NCBI GenBank assembly: GCA_034780895.1
Contig: JAUZTB010000076.1
Location: forward strand, 45,303,557-45,367,556
Direction of reading: 5' to 3'
DNA: 64,000 nucleotides
DNA from: Rhynchobatus australiae
Taxonomy: Eukaryota
Shown: one piece after another, positions 1,853 to 49,457 of the stretch
Position numbering within the stretch: position 1 is the stretch's first letter
Layout of the letters: each line of letters opens with the position of its first letter
The notes under the pieces: generated by a model
The model's input: the letters and a program-made list of their open reading frames with translations, nothing else
What the model was told of the DNA's origin: nothing
Database searches by the model: none
Translations under genes and position numbers: made by a program

Positions 1853-2175
1853 CTGGAGAGGTTTCTGTGGTGTCAGTTTCTTCCATGCTTTAACTGGATT
1901 CTGTATTCCATATAAATTGACTCTTTGCTGGGCAGTAGATTGATAGTTGTACCTCTACCTCCACCTCACTGGCTGATGCAGTGGTGTTAGTAATTACTTA
2001 AAAAAGTTTCAGCTCATTCTATTCACAGATCTGTACCATCATATTAACATCCAGGAGAAAGCTACTTATGCCCAAACTGCCTACCATCCAGGATCATACA
2101 CGAATTACGAGCAGAAATCCACCCAGCACATTCACCTCCTTTCAAAGAGGACAAAGATGAAGCAAACTGCCTTAC

Positions 2176-2301
2176 CCACTGCTTTACAACTCTCGGTCAT
2201 TGGATCCATCTCATAACCTTGGAAGCAGGTGCACTTGTACCCTCCTTTAATGTTCGTGCAGATCTGGCTGCATTGGTCTGGATCTTCACATTCATTTATA
2301 T
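2176..2301 (-). CDS. LRP8: LRP8 exon 9: calcium-binding EGF-B ([42 protein letters not shown])
   Basis: ttcag| acceptor, |GTAAGG donor, 126 nt. The YWTD propeller exons are not seen in 1-2175 and presumably lie outside the window. Confidence 0.95.
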
Positions 2302-2449
2302 CTGAAAGAACCATTTCAACTAGTCAATAAACTGGCTGAATTCTGTGCCATTTGTACAACAGTGCTTATTATTGAAACCTGTGTTTCAATTCAGGCTGCT
2401 CTTTGTTCAAAGATGACCGAAGGAAGGATCTGCTTTGCATTTTAATTAC

Positions 2450-2569
2450 CTCCACATGTCTTTGAGTCTAACAGTGTGTATCCGGCTGGGCATTCGCATT
2501 CATATCCGACCTTCAAGTCTCTACACGTGTGGGAGCAGCCACCATTGTTAGTCAGGCACTCATTTAAAC
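2450..2569 (-). CDS. LRP8: LRP8 exon 8: EGF-A ([40 protein letters not shown])
   Basis: gccag| acceptor, |GTAATT donor, 120 nt. GLNECL.NNGGCSH matches ApoER2 EGF-A. Confidence 0.95.
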
Positions 2570-3469
2570 CTGGCACCAAAACAAAAAACAGCACATTGAC
2601 TGGATAAATTACAAAGCATCAGTGAGAAATGGCTTTAGTGCTTTCAGATCTATGCAATGGAGTAGTCTGAGTAAATCCACATACACTAAACATGGCCAAC
2701 ATTAAAACAAACTTTAAAAGGGTGTTCACCAAAAGATTTAAAATTACCAATCTTGTATCCCAAAATCTACAGCAGTGGGGAGGGAGGTGTGTGGAGGGTG
2801 GAGTTTTAGACAGTTCTCAAGTTTTGTTAAATATCAATTATAAATTAAGAATAAATACTTAAGACATTTGCAGGTGGTGGCCTGATTAAGACGTTCTATT
2901 TTTGTGAAAATGACTTAATCAACACAAGAACGACCTCCATTTGTACATCACTTCAACACAGTGAAAGAAAATCCCAAGATGGTTTGAGTGTTTTCCAAAC
3001 GTACAGCAGCAGTGAGCCACAGGATGAAATTAGGGTAGATAATCAAAAGCTTCATGAAATGAGTAGATTTTGAGCAGCATTCAAAAGTAGGAAAGAAAGA
3101 TAGAAATGAAGAGGCAGTGGAAATTCCAGAGTTTGAGCCTCAGCAGATGAAAACACAGCTGCTGTTGAATGAGCAGGACTGAACAGCAGTCAATTATAAG
3201 TTAACAGGTGTCTGAGTTAAAGGGTTGGAAGAGATTTTGTGATCCATATAAAATGTAATTTGTTTGCTTTATACAATTCCTAGTGACAATGACAACTGCC
3301 TCTAACTGGCTGAAAGACTGGGAAGGCTTAAGTTAAAGAGCATCCTCTGGTATATCCAAGACTAAGACTAGACTGAGGTCTGCAGGAGAAGTTTCATTCT
3401 ATTCAAGCTCTGTTACACAATGCAGTGCCAGCCTCAACTCTTAGGTAGAAATCTCACCTCTGTCAGAAG

Positions 3470-3567
3470 CAAGACACACAAAAAGTGCTGGAGGAACTGC
3501 TGAGTTCCTCCAGCATTTTTTGTGTGTTGCCCCAGATTCCAGCATCTGCAGAATTTCTTGTGTCTAA
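3470..3567. mobile_element. ~100-bp foldback Penelope-derived insert with 8-bp TSD (GTCAGAAG) inside a tRNA-headed SINE
   Basis: CACACAAAAAGTGCTGGAGGAACT-GCTG-AGTTCCTCCAGCATTTTTTGTGTG hairpin. GTCAGAAG at 3462-3469 and 3568-3575. Host continues GGTTGTATGTTCAAGTCCCATTCCAG (B-box). Confidence 0.75.
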
Positions 3568-4082
3568 GTCAGAAGGTTGTATGTTCAAGTCCCATTCCAG
3601 AGATCTGAGAACAACAATTAAAGCTTTTAAATTAAGTGTCTGTTCTATTGGTTCAACAAAAAGAATTTTATCTGTACACAATTTCCACCTATTATCCCAG
3701 GACTGTTTGTCAGACCATACTGTGTGCAAATTGGTGCCTCATTCCTTATACTATATCAATGACTATACTTCAAAAGTAGTTCAGAAGCTGTAGTTCTGAC
3801 CTCTTAAAAAGCACTATTCTTTTTACAATGCTAACACCAAGTGGCAATGATACGCCTCATTTCAATGATCACAAAATTCAAAGCACAACAGGGGGAGGGG
3901 GTTGTTGGATTCACACAAAAACAGCATTACCAAGAATCATCAAAGGAATCTTCATTCTAGCCTTAACCCATCCTCTTGAAATATTCCACTTTCTTATCGC
4001 TACTGTTTTTTTGGAAAACATCGAGGAGAATATGTAGTTGTAATGATGATAGAAAGCACCTGTCACCCTGGATCCATCTTAC

Positions 4083-4205
4083 CGCATTCTTTAAGTGGTT
4101 CATCTGACCAGTCTTTGCAGTCCTTGTGAGAGTCACATACTTTCTTCGAATCAATACACTCTCCACTCCCACAGAGAAACTTCAAATGTCCTTTACAAGG
4201 GGTCA
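4083..4205 (-). CDS. LRP8: LRP8 exon 7: LA8 ([41 protein letters not shown])
   Basis: aacag| acceptor after an 86-nt intron, |GTAAGA donor, 123 nt. [10 protein letters not shown] is the signature of the last ligand-binding repeat. Confidence 0.94.
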
Positions 4206-4291
4206 CTGTTTGACATCAAGAACAACATTGTTAGATCTCAAGGGACACCATCACTTGCTTGCAGACACAAGACTCAGCAAACAGTACTAAC

Positions 4292-4414
4292 CATTCTTGC
4301 AGTCTAGCTCGTCAATGCGGTCTGAACAGTCAAAGACTTGGTTGCACTGTTTGGATCCATGAATGCAACTCCCATCACCACACTGGAACTCATCGGGCTG
4401 GCAAGTTACCTTTG
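4292..4414 (-). CDS. LRP8: LRP8 exon 6: LA7 ([41 protein letters not shown])
   Basis: taaag| acceptor, |GTTAGT donor, 123 nt phase 1-1, six Cys. Confidence 0.93.
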
Positions 4415-4696
4415 CTTTAAGAGAAAATTTGTACGTTATTTTTAAATTTTACTATTTGTATTATTATTCAAAAGGAAGATTTCAAAAGGTATCAAAAATA
4501 TCTTAATGTTTAAAATGATGGACTCAAGGATAAAACTTAACACATTGGCAGACAGCTAAACTAGAGGAGGGCCATAAGTGTCAAAGATTGAGAGATGGTC
4601 TCTCATGGTCAGGGAGAGTACCATTCTATCCTTTTACCTCATTTCCCTTCTCAACCAGAAAACATCAGGAAATGCCAGTCTGCAGACTGCAAATGG

Positions 4697-4950
4697 CAGG
4701 GTGGCACGGTAGCTTAGTGGTTAGCGTGATGCTACTACAGTGCCAGCANNNNNNNNNNNNNNNNNNNNNNNNNNNNNNNNNNNNNNNNNNNNNNNNNNNN
4801 NNNNNNNNNNNNNNNNNNNNNNNNNNNNNNNNNNNNNNNNNNNNNNNNTTCCAAAGACATACGGGTAGGTTAACATGGGTTTAAAAAAATGGGCACCAAG
4901 GATTTGTTGGGCCGGAAGGGCCTGTTACCACACTGGAAATAAAATTTAAA
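4697..4950 (+). mobile_element. HE1-like tRNA-derived SINE
   Basis: A-box head GGCACGGTAGCTTAGTGGTTAGC and CR1-type tail GGGCCGGAAGGGCCTGTTACC. Middle is a gap. Confidence 0.7.
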
Positions 4951-5459
4951 TTCAAAGCCAAAAGTCAAACTCATGTTCCTCATGAAATTATAGAGCTCAA
5001 AGATCAGCTAGCCATTTCCCATGCCACAGTACTAGTCATGCTTATCAGTGTTTGTGAATGCCAGTGTAGCTATCAGTTTGAATGACAGAACAGGCTTGAG
5101 GGGTTCAATGGTCTCCTGTTGCCATCTTNNNNNNNNNNTCTTCTCATTCCACCACCTGAAGCAGGAGGTTGCAAGGCAAGATCACTGGATATTCCGACTT
5201 TGCTCAACTCCTTTATTTACTTTTGAGAGATAATTGTTGGCCTTTCTACTAAAATAGTTTATGGGTGTATTTCCTGGGACATTAGGTTTCCTCAACAGGA
5301 AAAAGGTCAACCCTCCAAAGTCCCTGGAGAACAGTTAGAACAAATTCAACCAAAACTCGGGAGACAAAGGCCCTAATTTATATGCATGATGAATACAATT
5401 AAAAGAGATTCTGTACGTCAGCATCATAGACACTTTGGACTTGATCATACAGCTAGTAG

Positions 5460-5885
5460 ATATCTTCCATGGTTCCCCAGGTTTCATTTTATCCTCCATA
5501 AATGAATTCATCTCAAACTCTGCTGTCTGTATCCTAACTCACACTAGTTCCTTTCATTCATCAACCCAATGCTCACTGATATAATTGCCTGCAAATCCAG
5601 CAACTTTCAGATTTAAAAATCTTGTCTTTAAAGTCTCCACAAGTTCACCCTTTCCTTATCTCTTGTATTCCCACCAGTCTTCAAAATTCTTTGCACTCCT
5701 CCAATGCTCACTCTTGCAGATCCCAAATTTTAGCTCTAACATGCTTTCAACTCTGGAATTCCCACCCCAGATTTCTTACATTCTTTCTACTCCTTTAAAC
5801 ATTCCTTAAAATCTATCTCTGACCAAGCTTTAGTTGTAATATATGTGGATTGGTGGCATATTCTGTTTGCTAATGCTCCTGAGTG
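5460..5885 (+). mobile_element. Old L2-like 3' fragment (related pieces at about 13540-13800 on +, and 3000-3230, 22960-23260, 27180-27370, 28560-28870 on -)
   Basis: CTCAAACTCTGCTG…CCTAACTCACAC…TTTAAAAATCTT…CTCTGGAATTCCC…CTCTGACCAAGCTTT pattern. Confidence 0.45.
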
Positions 5886-6441
5886 TGTATCCTGCCATTA
5901 TACATACACACCAGCTGAATGGATAAGCCAGTGTAGGGCACCTGACACCAGAAGAACCAGTCTCAGTAAGCATTCCAGTTTTTTTTGGGTGGGGGGGGGT
6001 GTGTGGGTGGGGAGGGGAGAATGTTAAACCTACTTGCTTTTATGTATAATACTTTTTTTTAAAAAATAGCTGGTTATAAGGCTATTCCATCACACTAGAT
6101 GCCTTGTCTATTCCAAATCCATTAGCATCCAGTAATTAGAATGGGATACCGAGCACGTGCGATAATCCTGGAAAAGTGTTCCCTCCCTCATCAAGAACAA
6201 CTATGCGCACACTTAAATCTCGCCCTCCCTGTTTAAACTGAGGTCAGTTAACTCAGCACAGACTGGGAGGAATCATACCTGCTACTTTCATGGTCTGTCT
6301 GAACCTGCTACACATGAATTCAGAGAACGAAAAAAAAAATGAATTAACCATCTCACTACAAGCAAGCCACATGAAACACCTTGAAATACTGAGATGACAC
6401 AGTCACATTCTGAATAAACTTAGAGATAAAAGAAAACTTAC

Positions 6442-6819
6442 GACAACCAATTTCATCTGATTTGTCCTTGCAGTCTATGCTTCCATCACATTTCCAGTTG
6501 AAGTGGATGCACTCGCCATTTGTGCACTGAAACTCACTTGCTGAGCAAGAGTCTGTAGGTTTCTGGGTCGCTGAATGGCCACAACTCTCCACACTCTCAT
6601 CCGAGCCGTCGGGACAGTCTGCATCACTGTCGCAGGCCCACAGTTCAGGAATGCACGTGGAGCTGTTGCACTGGAACTCATGGGATCCACAGGTGGGTGG
6701 AGAGCAGTCCTGCTCCTCTGTGCCATCACCACAGTCGTCATCCCCATCGCACACAAACATCATGGCAATGCACTTTTCATTTTTACATAAGAATTCATTG
6801 GGTGAGCATGTCTTCTTAT
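6442..6819 (-). CDS. LRP8: LRP8 exon 5: LA4-LA6 with linker ([12 protein letters not shown]...[11 protein letters not shown])
   Basis: cacag| acceptor, |GTAAGT donor, 378 nt, three LDLa repeats with a linker ([11 protein letters not shown]) between LA5 and LA6. Ends in the ApoER2/LDLR-like DCKDKSDE. Confidence 0.96.
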
Positions 6820-8962
6820 CTGTGGGGTACGGGAGGAGCCATTATGAGCAAACAAATCGATGAGATCTTGCACGAAATTAACAAAAAAACGATTATTTCC
6901 TTCTTCTCACCAACCCTTACTTCAAACATCTCTTCATCGTGTCTGAATGCACTGACATGCTGAATAATGGGCCCAGAAGTTGCAAGCACACATGAAAGCC
7001 TGAACAGAGTGTTGGCAGGCTATCCAACAGATGGATCATCACAGCTGAGACTAATCCTTTCCTCACTTGAGGTCAGCATGTGCACTTTTCAGCAAGTGTC
7101 CCAGATAGTTACTGGTAGGGATCACCTCTCTCCCCTGGGATGGCCAAATCCAATTATGGCACCCAGCTGCAGTTCCACTAATATCACTCCACAAGAGTAC
7201 TTATATCTCAGTTCAGCTTACTGATGTCCAGCCTATTTTGGATATGTCTGTGAGGAAATCCGTAATGTCAAAGACAGAAATTGTGTGAGAACTTTAAAAT
7301 GACACAACATGTTTACAGTGAAGTCAATTAGTCAAAGCTAATTAATTTTACAAATCACTTTTCTTCAGAGGATCACTCAAGAGTGAAGTTTGGCGTCATC
7401 CACATGTGTGGGGGTTTCATGATGAACTAGCTTTTCCCTGCGATCATTGACATCCTGCTTTTGCTCAAGAAACATGATCTCCAAGGTAAAACAGTGACAA
7501 CAGTAGGAAATGCAACAAACTGATCAGCCATCTGTTCAGCCTTGGACAAAGTCAGTATGTGTTCAGTTGTTAAGAAAAGCCTCATGGAGACTAGAGGCAT
7601 TATTTGCAGCAATTGTCATTTAAAAATAAATACTTGCTCCTTCTCTAGCCTCTAGAAAAACAGCAACTCAGGCTTTGGTGATATTTACATAGGAGCCATT
7701 GGTTGCCTGCATTTTGCTTGTCAAAGGCACCCCCAGCCAAAATGAATCCTATCGGCAGACATTGATACATATTCACTTTCCAGTGATAGTGATCGGAAGA
7801 AGGAACCCGGCTTTTAATGCCCTCACTGGCATGTCCCAGCTGAACTGCAGTGCTCTCTGCCAAAATCGGTTTCCACACCACCACCCTGGGATGGAACATG
7901 GCAACTTGAGATGTGTACAGGTCAGAACGACACAGGTTCACTTCTCTTGCTGAACTTTGGGAGAAACCAGATGGCAAAGGTTAGGTTAGAGCTAGAGCCC
8001 TAACCAAAATTCACCCAAAGGATGTTCACACACTCACCACCTCTGTTAGGGATTGGAAGGTGTGGGGCATCATTCAGGAGTTACGGAGGTGGTAGCAATT
8101 AATACAAACGAGAACCAATCTTCACAAACTATTTCAAAATGTACAAGCAGTAATTGGTTTTGAAATTAAAAGCAGAGTTGTATGAATAAGCACCACAGGC
8201 TGTAGGCTCACAGCTGGAGGCTGCTTAAGAGATATGGTTTGTAAACTGACATCACCAGGAGTCATTCTTGCATGCATTAGCCAAACACAAGACAATGGAG
8301 CAATGTTGTTACCTGGCCTACATCAGACCAAGCATCAGATATCTTCAGCTCGGATATTTTACACCATTGTGAAAGAGATCAAGCAAAGCTCCTCACTAGT
8401 TATTTGACTATTAGTACATCAAATATGGTTACCTGCATATTTGTTCCATCAATAATTGAGGTATGTGTGCACCTAGAGAGTCAAGCCACACAACACTGAT
8501 TTTGAGTGTCTGAGGTTTCTGTCCTCAGAAACTTTTAGACCATTCATGTGAACATCTTTATCTCAGCAAAGGTGTTTGATGGTTGTGTCAACTGAGACAT
8601 ACTCCCTTTATAAGTATGCAATTTGATGGAACCATTAGTCTGCACCCAAAATATTGAAGTGAACTGTGGAACTGTAACTACTGAAATTGTATTCAATTAT
8701 CTGTTGTTCTTTAAGAGTATAAAACCTTGAGCTACTTTAAGTTCAGATAGATTCTACAGAATTACTCAATTCTCCCAGGAGCAAGTCTTCCAATAGGTCT
8801 CCTCCTGAACATTTATTTGAGCTGAACAAAGACCTTTAATATTTACAGNNNNNNNNNNNNNNNNNNNNNNNNNAAGTCACATTTGGGGGCTCGTCCAAGA
8901 TAGGGTTAAGGCTAGAGCTCGAGCCATCCAAAAATTCACCTGAAGGAAATTCACACACTCAC

Positions 8963-9085
8963 CATCTGCACAATGCAACTCGTCGGTTCCATTTCCACAG
9001 TCCTTCTGACCGTCACACTGCCATGAAAGTGGGATGCATCTGTTTCTGGAACAGCCAAATGTGTCAGGTGGGCACGTAACTTTAT
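8963..9085 (-). CDS. LRP8: LRP8 exon 4: LA3 ([41 protein letters not shown])
   Basis: tgcag| acceptor, |GTGAGT donor, 123 nt, six-Cys LDLa pattern. Confidence 0.93.
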
Positions 9086-11069
9086 CTGCACCACACGGGA
9101 AAGAAAAGAATCTGAGTGCATTTGCTTCATGAATGAGGAATTTCAAATCAGGCTTCTTTTGGGTTTACTGGAGTAATGAAACCTTTAGAGTTTATATCAG
9201 CCCCAATCACCTTGTCCAGTCATTTATACAGCATGATGCACTGCAACATACAGGCAGTGAAACACGTTTTAGGATCTATAGTCCAGGAAGAAAGCAGGGC
9301 TGGACTAAAACGGAAACAAGGTAAATTTGGAAGCCAGTGATTGAGAGTACCAAGCTTGAGATTGAAAGTCTTAAGGAGAAAGAAAGCAAAGCGAGCTTTC
9401 AACTTTGAGATCCCAAGAAAGAACACAGAGAACTGAACCTCGACTTCAGCAAAAGTAGAAGCTTTATGGGCAAGAACAAGCATTTTCTCCTTGTTTTTGC
9501 TGCAGATGATTAAGGACAGACAGATGGGTGGTGATGTCCACTACAAATTATTCCATCAAGTTGGAAGAACACATTTTATAGTCTTCTATTAAACTTGCTC
9601 TGAAACTGTTCTTCCATTTTGTCATTAGCAAATAGCCAGTTTACTGAGTATGCCATTGAGCAATTTACCAGAAACCAGGTGATGAAGTATCCATTTGCTA
9701 ATTTGGATTTAAAGATGGTTTAAACAACAGATGCATGGTGATGAGCCCCAAATGCTGCAGACACTTTATAAAAAAATGTATAGATTCCCACAATGAAAAT
9801 CACTGACTGCATCCAGCCAAGTTTTAAAGAATGGCATGCCTTAAAGATGGAGGAGGTAACCATACCCAACACAACGACTGTGCCCCAGAAGTGATGGGTA
9901 CAGTACAGATATGTGATGCGAAAAGGACCAACAGAACCCAGTAAGATCCCAACTCGAGAACATCTTGTTTGTTTTTCCAAATGGCAGACAAAGGGATAAT
10001 AAACAAATCAGTAGGGAAACTGGAATCAACTTGCTCTCATTACTAGGCTTGATTAGATTATTTTATTCATGAACTTACTCAATGGAAAAAGCACCTAAAC
10101 TGATATCAGGTTAAATGCATTCAGCTCATTTATTACTGCAATACATTATCAAAGAAAATTAAACTGATGGTATGTTTACAAATCAGCTTGGCAATTCTTT
10201 GTTGAAAAAGACAAAATGAAGGTGCCAAGAGTAAAACAATGTAACTTCACCCTCTGCCCCACCCTCACCCTTCCTGGGTGGGAGCTAGTTTGTATGTTTG
10301 GCTGGAGATCCCAGCTGTTATCCAAATTGCCCACCCTCATAATAAATTTTCTGGTGCACAAAGCATCATTAAACCCAGAAAAAAACATCTTCCACATGGC
10401 GTTCAACTAACAATTTATGGACCTTCTTTTGCCCAAGCAGATTCCAAGGTAATAGTTGGCAATGTGTCACAGTGACTTTCTCCTCTGTCAGCATCATGTT
10501 AATACAGCACAGTGCCACCAGACAGGCTGGTTCAAATGGAATCTCACCAATGGGAGCAACTGCAATCCTGAAGATTCAGTGTTATGATCGTCCAAAATGT
10601 CAAGTTACACAAGCCTTATCAATAATTTGCATATGCACTAAATATATGAATAGTAATGCTGAGTAAAGAGTAAGAGGGAGAGGTTAGACAAAAAGAGAAA
10701 CCAGGATGAGTTCAATTACAACATCCTCACCTCAGCTCTCCCCAAACAGGATGTTTGCACTGAATTATTCAGATATTACTTCATAAGCAGAGGAGAGTGA
10801 GCTATTCCTGTAGCACTGCAATTAAATGGCCAACCTCAGAAGAATCTGATACAAACCAGAAATAAAATAACCTTCTGAAACAACTCATGGAATCACTAAG
10901 GCTACCAGCCTGTTACTTAAAACATTATGGAGCATTTCCACTGGAAATTAAAATAGGCTGGAGACTGGTAACCATCAGGATTTGCCATCTACAACCTCAA
11001 CATGTAACGCAATCTAGAGTATCTTGTCTCCAGGCAATACAAATTCAAATGTTTTGGACAGTATAACTT

Positions 11070-11666: not shown

Positions 11667-12650
11667 TCAAATCCCTTTTAAAACTCCTTCCTCTCACCTT
11701 ATGCCTTTGCTCTCTTGTTTTTGATATACCTGCCACAGGAAAAAGATTCCGACTTTCTACTCTATGCCTCTTGTACAGTTTATACTTCTGTTAGGTAACC
11801 CCTCGGCATCCTTTGGTCCAGGGAAAACAAGCCCAGCCTATCCAATGGCTCCCTGTTTTTCTCCTCCAATTCAAGTAACATCCTGGTGAATCTCCTCTGA
11901 ATTCTCTCTAGTGCAACCACAACCTTCCACTACTACCCCCGCTTCCTATCATCAGCCAATTTTGGATCCAATTAGCCAGCTTGCCTTGGATCCTATGTGC
12001 CTTAACCTTCTGGACCAACCTGCTATGCAGAACCTTGTCAAAAGCCCACACAGACAACGATGAAGGCAGGACAGTAGACAATCTTTTTAGTTACCCCTCA
12101 AAATACTATCAAATTAGTAGAGACTAGATTTCCCCCACACAAATCCATGCTGACTATGGAGATACAAGAGACTGGAGATGTTGGTGTCTGGAGCAACAAA
12201 CAACCTGCTGGAAGGACTCAGTGGGTCAAGCAACATCTGTAGGAAGAAAAGAATCTTTCCCAGTTCTGATGCAAGGTTTTGACCTGAAATATCAAAAATT
12301 CCTTTCCTCCCACAGATGCTGCTTGACCCACTGAGACCCTCTGGCAGATTGTTTGTTGCTCTATGCTGACTATCCCTGATCAGACTCCATTTCCAAATGT
12401 ACATAAATCCTATACCTTAGGACTTTCTTCAATAATTTCTCTAACACTCAGGCAAGGCCTGTAGTTACCTGGTTAGTCCTTGCTGCACTTCTTAAATAAA
12501 GAAACAACATTAGCTATCCTGCAGTCTTCTGTGGCTAACATTGACACAAAACTCTTTGTCAGGGCCCTAGCCATTTCCTCTCCTGGTTCCCATAGTAACC
12601 TTGGATACATCTCATCAGGCCCTGAGGATTTATCAATCCTTAAGAGACCA
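11667..12650 (-). mobile_element. CR1-clade LINE remnant (RT region and 3' part)
   Basis: LRIDKSSGPDEMYPRLLWE..EEMARALTK..CRIANVVSLFKK, QHGFVWGKS, and a typical CR1 3' region. Interrupted by the foldback insert. Confidence 0.8.
12158..12362. mobile_element. ~200-bp foldback Penelope-derived insert with 11-bp TSD, nested in CR1
   Basis: Arms of about 65 bp are inverted around a decayed hammerhead (CTGATGC...GAAA). ATGCTGACTAT at 12147-12157 and 12363-12373. Confidence 0.8.
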
Positions 12651-49010: not shown

Positions 49011-49457
49011 CTGAACGGCAGGGAAACTTACACGGTTTAACATTGCAAAATAAAACAAAAACCCAACTGTAGTAATGCAAAATAACACGATGTGCGCCCT
49101 GCACCTAAGAGCTTCCACCAAAAGTGGCTCCTGGTATGGCAATATTTTTAAGATCTTAAATGATTTATTAGAAGCATTGCCATACCAGGAAATAGCTGGT
49201 CCTGTTCGGCAGTTATAATTTTTAAAAACTGCAAAAATGTTAATTACCAAAATGTTTTTAAAAAAATCTGGTATTGAATCGGATGCGCGTTTACATATAA
49301 CGCTTTGGCAGTAGAAAAATCAATATCCTTCGGCTTGCCGTTTTATTTCAACTCTCTAAACACCATCACATTCAATGAACTGGAATGAAGATATAACCCA
49401 CCATTGTCAATTACAAAATACTTGTATTTTTAAAAATAAGTCTTAACAAGTACTGAC

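Follow-up and report, generated by a model that had tools for sequence, protein, structure and literature searches.

Does base pairing between two short complementary sequences in introns 4 and 7 of LRP8 control the splicing of the exons that lie between them? An earlier note on this DNA proposed that it does. In that model, selection maintains a long-range duplex with a 14-bp core, which loops out exons 5–7 and favors the joining of exon 4 to exon 8, leaving LA1-3 followed by EGF-A. We examined the complementary arms within the whole 64,000-nt stretch analyzed (the window) and in related organisms. On balance, the evidence favors a 14-nt match that arose by coincidence, not a splicing switch, next to an old retrovirus-like insertion that supplies the additional predicted pairs.

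LRP8 Exons and Known Splice Variants

By sequence comparison, the gene is LRP8, an assignment carried by two beta-propeller exons downstream of the ligand-binding exons. The first scores 125.7 bits against ApoER2 (5b4x) versus 91.9 against VLDLR, and the second 65.7 versus 54.7; comparisons of EGF-A and LA1 did not favor LRP8 over VLDLR. Joining of exon 4 to exon 8 is in phase 1-1, as had been pointed out in support of a switch. The phase is correct, but it is uninformative because exons 4–9 are without exception phase 1-1 and each a multiple of 3 nt long.

Cassette splicing of ApoER2/LRP8 (PMC7410921, PMC6213145, PMC11293713) concerns this same gene, and the eight LA repeats found here are also those of mouse and chicken. 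In humans, exon 5 is known to be skipped and a form with LA1-3 alone exists (PMC6213145); exon 4–8 joining here would yield an LA1-3-only receptor like that one human variant. The main mammalian event, however, is skipping of exon 5 alone, and the human gene has no LA8 exon. Block skipping of exons 5–7 is not the common pattern, since the three mouse brain variants listed all keep LA7 and chicken forms differ only in LA8 (PMC6213145). Regulators of exon 5 and exon 7 splicing are listed as unknown (PMC7410921), and the literature searched yielded no RNA-structure mechanism for splicing of the ligand-binding exons; a working duplex would be the first cis mechanism for their skipping.

Complementary Arms in Introns 4 and 7

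Positions 8903–8916 are indeed the exact reverse complement of 3956–3969. Arm 1 lies at +47 to +60 from the exon 4 donor and arm 2 at +114 to +127 from the exon 7 donor; the arms are 4,933 nt apart, and the loop between them holds exons 5–7, in agreement with the original description. The energy check by RNAduplex gave −24.0 kcal/mol for the 14-bp core and −33.2 kcal/mol with the 7-bp extension (8894–8900 with 3974–3980, including one G-U pair), which the program predicts as well. In a two-strand model, the core base pairs form with a probability of 0.96–0.99 in all variants.

The assertion that neither arm lies in a repeat stands for the 14-nt cores, which have at least 6 genome matches versus at least 6 for the control, so that the arms as a repeat family are ruled out. 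It fails for the surroundings: the intron 4 side of the extension is inside an interspersed LTR-like element, and a local duplication of 66 nt takes in arm 1. A telomere-like origin of the arms was also considered, as both are three mismatches away from the telomere repeat TTAGGG; telomere-like matches number 8 against an expectation of 3.67, a count that includes the two arms themselves.

Table 1. Coordinates of the arms, the inserted element and the LRP8 exons in the window
Feature	Position	Strand	Remarks
Arm 1, 14-nt core	8903-8916	-	host-derived; directly adjoins inserted element
Arm 2, 14-nt core	3956-3969	-	single-copy intron 7; 3958 differs in relatives D, E
7-nt extension, intron 4 side	8894-8900	-	inside primer-binding site
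7-nt extension, intron 7 side	3974-3980	-	3976 differs in relatives B, D, E
Copy 1 of 66-nt host piece	8902-8967	-	exon 4 end (5 nt) with donor; 61 nt of intron 4, arm 1 among them
Copy 2 of 66-nt host piece	7977-8043	-	donor-like GTG/GTGAGT at 8038/8037; diverged arm
LTR-like interspersed repeat	8044-8881	+	antisense to LRP8; old; TG start, CA end
tRNA-Pro primer-binding-site-like 18-mer	8884-8901	+	right after LTR-like repeat
LRP8 exon 4 (LA3)	8963-9085	-	123 nt; phase 1-1; donor ATG/GTGAGT
LRP8 exon 5 (LA4-6)	6442-6819	-	378 nt
LRP8 exon 6 (LA7)	4292-4414	-	123 nt
LRP8 exon 7 (LA8)	4083-4205	-	123 nt
LRP8 exon 8 (EGF-A)	2450-2569	-	120 nt

A Retrovirus-like Insertion Next to Arm 1

The 66-nt host piece that contains arm 1 has only two matches in the whole genome, namely copies 1 and 2, which are identical in 54 of 68 alignment columns. 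The 806 nt between them have at least 42 further genomic matches at 68–75% (40 of 1144 candidates scored), and the match starts at 8043–8044 in four of the nine loci compared. An assembly gap (8849–8873) falls within the LTR-like repeat. At 16 of its 18 positions the adjoining 18-mer is the complement of a genomic tRNA-Pro(AGG) 3′ end (L061), with departures at 8897 and 8898; other tRNA genes reach at most 12 of 18 (38 genes, 7 amino acids). This tRNA-Pro was found by motif search (1 among 15 of 72 loci); the Rfam sample of 38 tRNA genes contained none. Elsewhere in the genome, the CA-TT-PBS motif has the same repeat upstream at four of five loci. The label "retrovirus-like" is our presumption from the CA-TT-PBS(Pro) arrangement, and internal element genes were not found at the LRP8 locus. 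A normal 4–6 bp target-site duplication was likewise absent around the element, which is flanked by the 66-nt duplication.

These features suggest that an LTR with its primer-binding site was inserted antisense into intron 4 and likely duplicated the host piece carrying the exon 4 donor and arm 1. Such a long target duplication may have been made by uncoordinated, one-ended integration or by capture at a break. Uncoordinated integration has a precedent in XMRV, in which 1 of 15 sites carried a 273 bp target duplication (PMC2857682). As there, host DNA forms a long direct repeat on either side of an LTR-like sequence with TG...CA ends; here, in contrast, all that is left is one LTR and an 18-nt primer-binding site, the duplication measures 66 nt, and the route is a reconstruction. 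The insertion is old, given flanking copies that are about 80% alike, and its junctions are common to four related organisms. The element is best seen as a neat relic of an irregular LTR insertion by which a splice donor was duplicated. It also supplied the 7-bp extension, which cannot predate the insertion because its intron 4 side sits inside the primer-binding site.

Pairing Compared with Chance

Across the window there are 44 exact inverted pairs of at least 14 nt, 9 of them within 5.2 kb, where Markov controls (30 runs for each of three orders) lead one to expect 2.0–2.9. A test restricted to 16 splice-proximal zones, 4 of which used approximate exon 2 and 3 borders, produced a 14-mer pair in 13 of 725 shuffles (1.8%) and in 34 of 696 random sets of real zones; the arm pair had originally been picked from the whole window, not only from such zones. 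The duplex with its extension was equalled by only 1 of the 725 splice-proximal shuffles. Equally strong pairing occurred in 107 of 1000 pairs of real segments of the same size, many of the strongest at known inverted-repeat positions. Net binding after local folding was −12.6 kcal/mol, and arm 2 was bound equally well by 32 of 400 random windows (8%). The pairing of the arms thus exceeds chance expectation only mildly.

Divergence of the Arms

Between copies 1 and 2, 3 of 14 arm positions differ versus 11 of the 54 remaining columns, an equal rate. A frozen arm 1 would predict about half of the observed arm divergence, a likelihood ratio of about 2 for neutrality. Relatives were compared over 5.3 kb by four DNA runs, all from close relatives with introns about 94–99% identical. 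Among the 40 differences listed out of 526, changes in arm 2 and the extension are found at 3958 (D, E), which faces 8914, and at 3976 (B, D, E), and none falls in the arm 1 region (8800–9150). Of the pieces listed for X2 none spans arm 1, and of those for X3 none spans arm 2. Both changes among these 40 of 526 replace A by G across from a U, so that pairing persists if arm 1 is unchanged; the probability of such an outcome by chance is 0.10–0.11. The predicted pairing of the extension drops from 0.64 to 0.0 with the intron 7 bases of B or of D/E. The surroundings of arm 2 are no better conserved in B than other intron DNA: about 220 nt around the arm show 11 changes and 4 gaps in 222 nt, versus 34 in 1248 other intron nt.

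Coincidence or Splicing Switch

These observations fit best with a coincidental match beside the insertion. The duplex may form transiently, playing no selected role, and any skipping of exon 5, 6 or 7 would then be run by ordinary cassette-exon control. For positions 2130–9200, no record listed was marked as RNA, although four runs from relative D may be; this does not bear on expression.

The selected loop-out put forward in the earlier note is the strongest competitor, though we regard it as doubtful. Its attraction lies in geometry and energy. Neither arm is more than 130 nt from a donor, opening of arm 1 is predicted to be cheap (1.6 kcal/mol), and the arm duplex is the best duplex of the intron 4/intron 7 pair, matched in 7 of 716 shuffles of that pair alone (1% tail). 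Length, energy and distance also place it inside the thresholds for pairs of conserved complementary regions (PCCRs), i.e., at least 10 complementary nt, −15 kcal/mol or better, and arms no more than 10 kb apart in one gene (PMC8052449). With its 14-nt perfect helix at −24 kcal/mol and a spread of 4.9 kb, it resembles the pairs at DST exons 46–52 (−25.0, 15 nt, 9431 nt) and DNM1 (−25.9, 13 nt, 8864 nt; PMC8052449 Table 1), and like these and PLP1 exon 3 (DNM1 at 10a/b; PMC8052449) it has intronic arms near splice sites and, in the loop, several exons. The modeled duplex is physically possible; its length and energy fall among those of human pairs that have been tested (PMC8052449 Table 1). The LA1-3-only human transcripts and the two pairing-preserving changes in the relatives point the same way.

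Against a selected loop-out stand the near-chance pairing once the search space is considered, the background rate at which the arm diverged between the copies, and an extension that is element-derived and not predicted with the intron 7 bases of three relatives. The duplex also fails to bring donor and acceptor together, because arm 2 leaves 1,386 nt to the exon 8 acceptor, and conserved exon-looping pairs are depleted in human genes (PMC8052449). PCCRs are defined by vertebrate-wide conservation, often with experiments, whereas for the LRP8 candidate conservation is seen only partially, among close relatives, and the duplex is known from sequence and predicted pairing. "LRP8" was absent from the supplementary files of PMC8052449 searched, which may not include the full pair catalogue. 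The duplex is probably a lineage-restricted candidate of a well-known class.

Exaptation of the insertion is quite unlikely. The primer-binding site of the insertion would have lengthened the duplex, leaving the donor with its arm in two copies; copy 1, by pairing with intron 7, would either compete with copy 2 in a selector-like manner or keep the second donor silent. Taken in isolation, copy 2 could pair ungapped with arm 2 at 19 of 21 positions (−25 to −27 kcal/mol), its donor is intact, and D shows 12 changes across the 324 nt compared at 7869–8190 versus about 6% elsewhere. Position 8898, the partner of 3976, differs from all five other element copies, whose base would also pair with that of B, D and E, which makes a double change possible, albeit post hoc. 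Yet −27 kcal/mol falls inside the shuffle background (mean best −28.7), and the diverged copy 2 arm is predicted to be locked in a local 9-bp hairpin, with a probability of 0.0 for its register in context. The docking-site/selector pairings of Dscam1 and ATE1 are alike in having a single 3′ arm for a pair of related 5′ arms; LRP8 differs in that it has no mutually exclusive duplicated exons and that folding would sequester its second arm. The second donor has no duplicated exon before it, and the extension is unpredicted in B, D and E. Similarly improbable is the fullest version, in which the insertion duplicated the exon 4 donor and lent its primer-binding site to a host duplex whose pairing selection then kept through the wobble changes at 3958 and 3976 and a possible double change at 8898–3976, creating a lineage-specific switch by which five of the eight ligand-binding repeats would be lost in one step. 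Were the duplex to work, it would be an example of splicing control that has co-opted a primer-binding site.

The duplex might also, as a side effect that would change the protein little, promote back-splicing of exons 5–7 into a 624-nt circular RNA. The exon and arm geometry suits this, and in human genes conserved pairs occur preferentially outside circular RNAs (PMC8052449), but for a short duplex of ordinary net stability it is very unlikely.

Copy 2 does not represent a duplicated exon, as similarity between the copies ends 5 nt into exon 4. Titles and abstract openings in the literature gave no report of an LRP8 micro-exon at such a donor. The acceptor-like sequence that precedes a putative 3- or 5-nt micro-exon at the copy 2 donor corresponds to the beginning of the LTR read in antisense.

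LRP8 exons and the predicted duplex

LRP8 lies on the minus strand, and its exons 4–9 have canonical AG/GT borders. Two propeller exons in a neighboring stretch (L076) scored highest against ApoER2 among single-propeller receptors, and a tail in another (L077) displays an NPVY context, which we take to be of LRP8 type. LA1 alone and EGF-A alone (LA, ligand-binding repeat; EGF-A, exon 8) did not discriminate between LRP8 and VLDLR. An earlier note proposed that pairing between introns 4 and 7 loops out exons 5–7. The two arms are indeed exact reverse complements and lie past the donors of exons 4 and 7 as described, the second approximately, with the exon-8 acceptor 1,386 nt downstream of arm 2. 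The pair is a real sequence feature that we consider most likely to be a coincidental match bordering an old LTR insertion.

Features of the LRP8 intron 4–intron 7 region in window coordinates
Feature	Position	Strand	Remarks
Arm 1	8903–8916		Intron 4; +47 to +60 past exon-4 donor
Arm 2	3956–3969		Intron 7; +114 to +127 past exon-7 donor
Extension	8894–8900 with 3974–3980		7 bp
Copy 1	8902–8967		Exon-4 donor and arm 1
Copy 2	7977–8043		
LTR-like repeat	8044 (TG start) to 8881 (CA end)	Plus, antisense to LRP8	From interspersed matches
Primer-binding-site-like 18-mer	8884–8901	Plus	2 nt after CA; from tRNA-Pro complementarity
Exons 4, 5, 6, 7, 8, 9		Minus	123, 378, 123, 123, 120, 126 nt; all phase 1-1

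RNAduplex assigned −24.0 kcal/mol to the core duplex and −33.2 kcal/mol with the extension, which is thus predicted as claimed but whose intron-4 side proved to be element DNA. Net binding was −12.6 kcal/mol once local folding was included, and closing the 4.9-kb loop would cost 13.2 kcal/mol by rough nearest-neighbor extrapolation, compared with ~4 for two-strand initiation, leaving a small stability margin. A local stem predicted on the minus strand at 8888–8927 combines host intron sequence with the primer-binding site and encloses arm 1, the 3′ half of which stays in a loop. In-frame joining of exon 4 to exon 8 holds by phase but carries no weight, because every exon here is symmetric and any skip would be in frame.

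A duplicated host segment around an LTR insertion

In a window self-search, 8904–8967 recurred at 7979–8042 (82%, E 3e-9). The full copies are identical at 54 of 68 alignment columns, their likeness stops 5 nt inside exon 4 without continuation on either side, and only these two places in the source genome match the duplicated piece. Between the copies lies an old interspersed repeat with at least 42 other matches at 68–75% (40 of 1144 candidates scored), the match beginning at 8043–8044 in four of nine loci. The 18-mer is complementary at 16/18 positions to the 3′ end of genomic tRNA-Pro(AGG), versus at most 12/18 for 38 other tRNA genes. A 17-nt primer-binding-site motif occurs at five other places, four with the same repeat upstream, and none of the five resembles the window beyond about 8902–8907. 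Judged from the copies, the repeat, the tRNA-Pro complementarity, and these other places, intron 4 reads as a host piece, an antisense LTR with its primer-binding site, and the host piece again. Uncoordinated integration may have produced the 66-nt host duplication; long target duplications are possible by this route (273 bp at 1 of 15 sites; PMC2857682). Contigs bridge the left insertion junction in related organisms B, D, and E and the right one in C, D, and E, so the insertion is older than a split that has left introns about 6% diverged. Being element DNA, 8894–8900 cannot be common to lineages without the insertion.

Expectation and selection

The window contains 44 exact inverted pairs of at least 14 nt (about 14 in Markov controls), nine of them within 5.2 kb (2.0–2.9 in controls). 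For intron 4 against intron 7 only, dinucleotide shuffles equaled the best duplex in 7/716 cases and reached the 14-mer in 9/716; among 1000 real segment pairs, 107 equaled that duplex and 52 contained a 14-mer. Across 16 zones, each within 150 nt of splice sites, shuffling gave the 14-mer in 13/725 and the energy with extension in 1/725, compared with 34/696 and 61/696 for random real zone sets. The arm-2 window was bound equally well by 32 of 400 random 102-nt windows, local folding included. The arm pair is a 1–2% event for well-chosen zones and routine across the whole window. A similar case, a 15-nt exact inverted pair (14367–14381/17206–17220, 2.8 kb apart), flanks exon 3, and a perfect hairpin at 49129–49190 (15-bp stem, 32-nt loop) has exon 2 ~100 nt downstream. 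Short-range inverted repeats at 3474–3527 (54 nt at 89%; within intron 7, inside no exon) and 12191–12361 (68-nt arms at 85%, spaced 35 nt) are built from a common interspersed repeat.

That the duplex works to loop out exons 5–7 is a doubtful but serious alternative. Against selection, copies 1 and 2 differ at 3/14 arm positions and 11/54 other columns, an equal rate, with a likelihood ratio of about 2 favoring neutrality of the arm. Around arm 2, B has 11 changes and 4 gaps in 222 nt versus 34 in 1248 nt of other intron DNA, and these surroundings are kept no better than the rest. Substituting the intron-7 bases found in B or in D/E, on the assumption that arm 1 has not changed, lowered the predicted pairing of the extension from 0.64 to 0.0; core pairing stayed at 0.96–0.99. 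In favor of selection, the changes at 3958 (arm 2; D, E) and 3976 (extension; B, D, E) each replace A with G across from a U; D and E count as one lineage sharing both. The chance that both are such is 0.10–0.11 by observed substitution spectra, among the 40 of 526 differences listed, which are seemingly ranked first on run count, then on position, and so would exclude two-run changes past 3958 and any arm-1 change. At 8898, the partner of 3976, the window base differs from that of all five other element copies. Theirs would pair with the base of B/D/E as well; a double change, spotted after the fact, is possible.

Exapted or competing arms are improbable. Taken by itself, copy 2 pairs with arm 2 at 19/21 ungapped positions (−25 to −27 kcal/mol), in a register displaced by 6 nt because the sequence has a roughly 6-nt periodicity; in context, it is predicted to adopt a 9-bp local hairpin, the register with arm 2 having probability 0.0. 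The putative second donor in copy 2 (GTG|GTGAGT) is intact, and tandem AG sites and a pyrimidine-rich tract derived from the antisense LTR start precede it (8032–8051, minus strand), where a 3-nt micro-exon (in-frame, one Gly), a 5-nt micro-exon, or a cryptic donor is possible.

Relation to LRP8 splicing

Mouse brain excludes exon 5 (the triple-LA exon, LA4–6), human use is variable, and the regulators of exons 5 and 7 are given as unknown (PMC7410921). LA1–3-only forms, held in the earlier note to exist in mammals, are documented as a human variant; LA7 is retained in all three mouse variants given, and chicken forms vary in LA8 (PMC6213145). Prominent human isoforms include those minus exon 5 and minus exons 4–5, in an excerpt where "RNA structure" and "secondary structure" occur 0 times (PMC11293713). 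No RNA-structure mechanism for LRP8/ApoER2 appeared among the literature matches listed, whose coverage is incomplete. Tested long-range pairs of comparable size exist, in a catalogue that requires conservation and has false discovery of 10% to over 50%; exon-looping pairs are depleted (PMC8052449). Circle promotion, as a by-product of such a duplex, is improbable.

Elsewhere in the source genome (C118:53,823,203–54,000,789), nine minus-strand exons in ~180 kb each match exon 5 at 53–64%, with about 66–72% mutual identity among five compared; either an LDLR-family gene or its LA exon appears to have expanded in tandem here.
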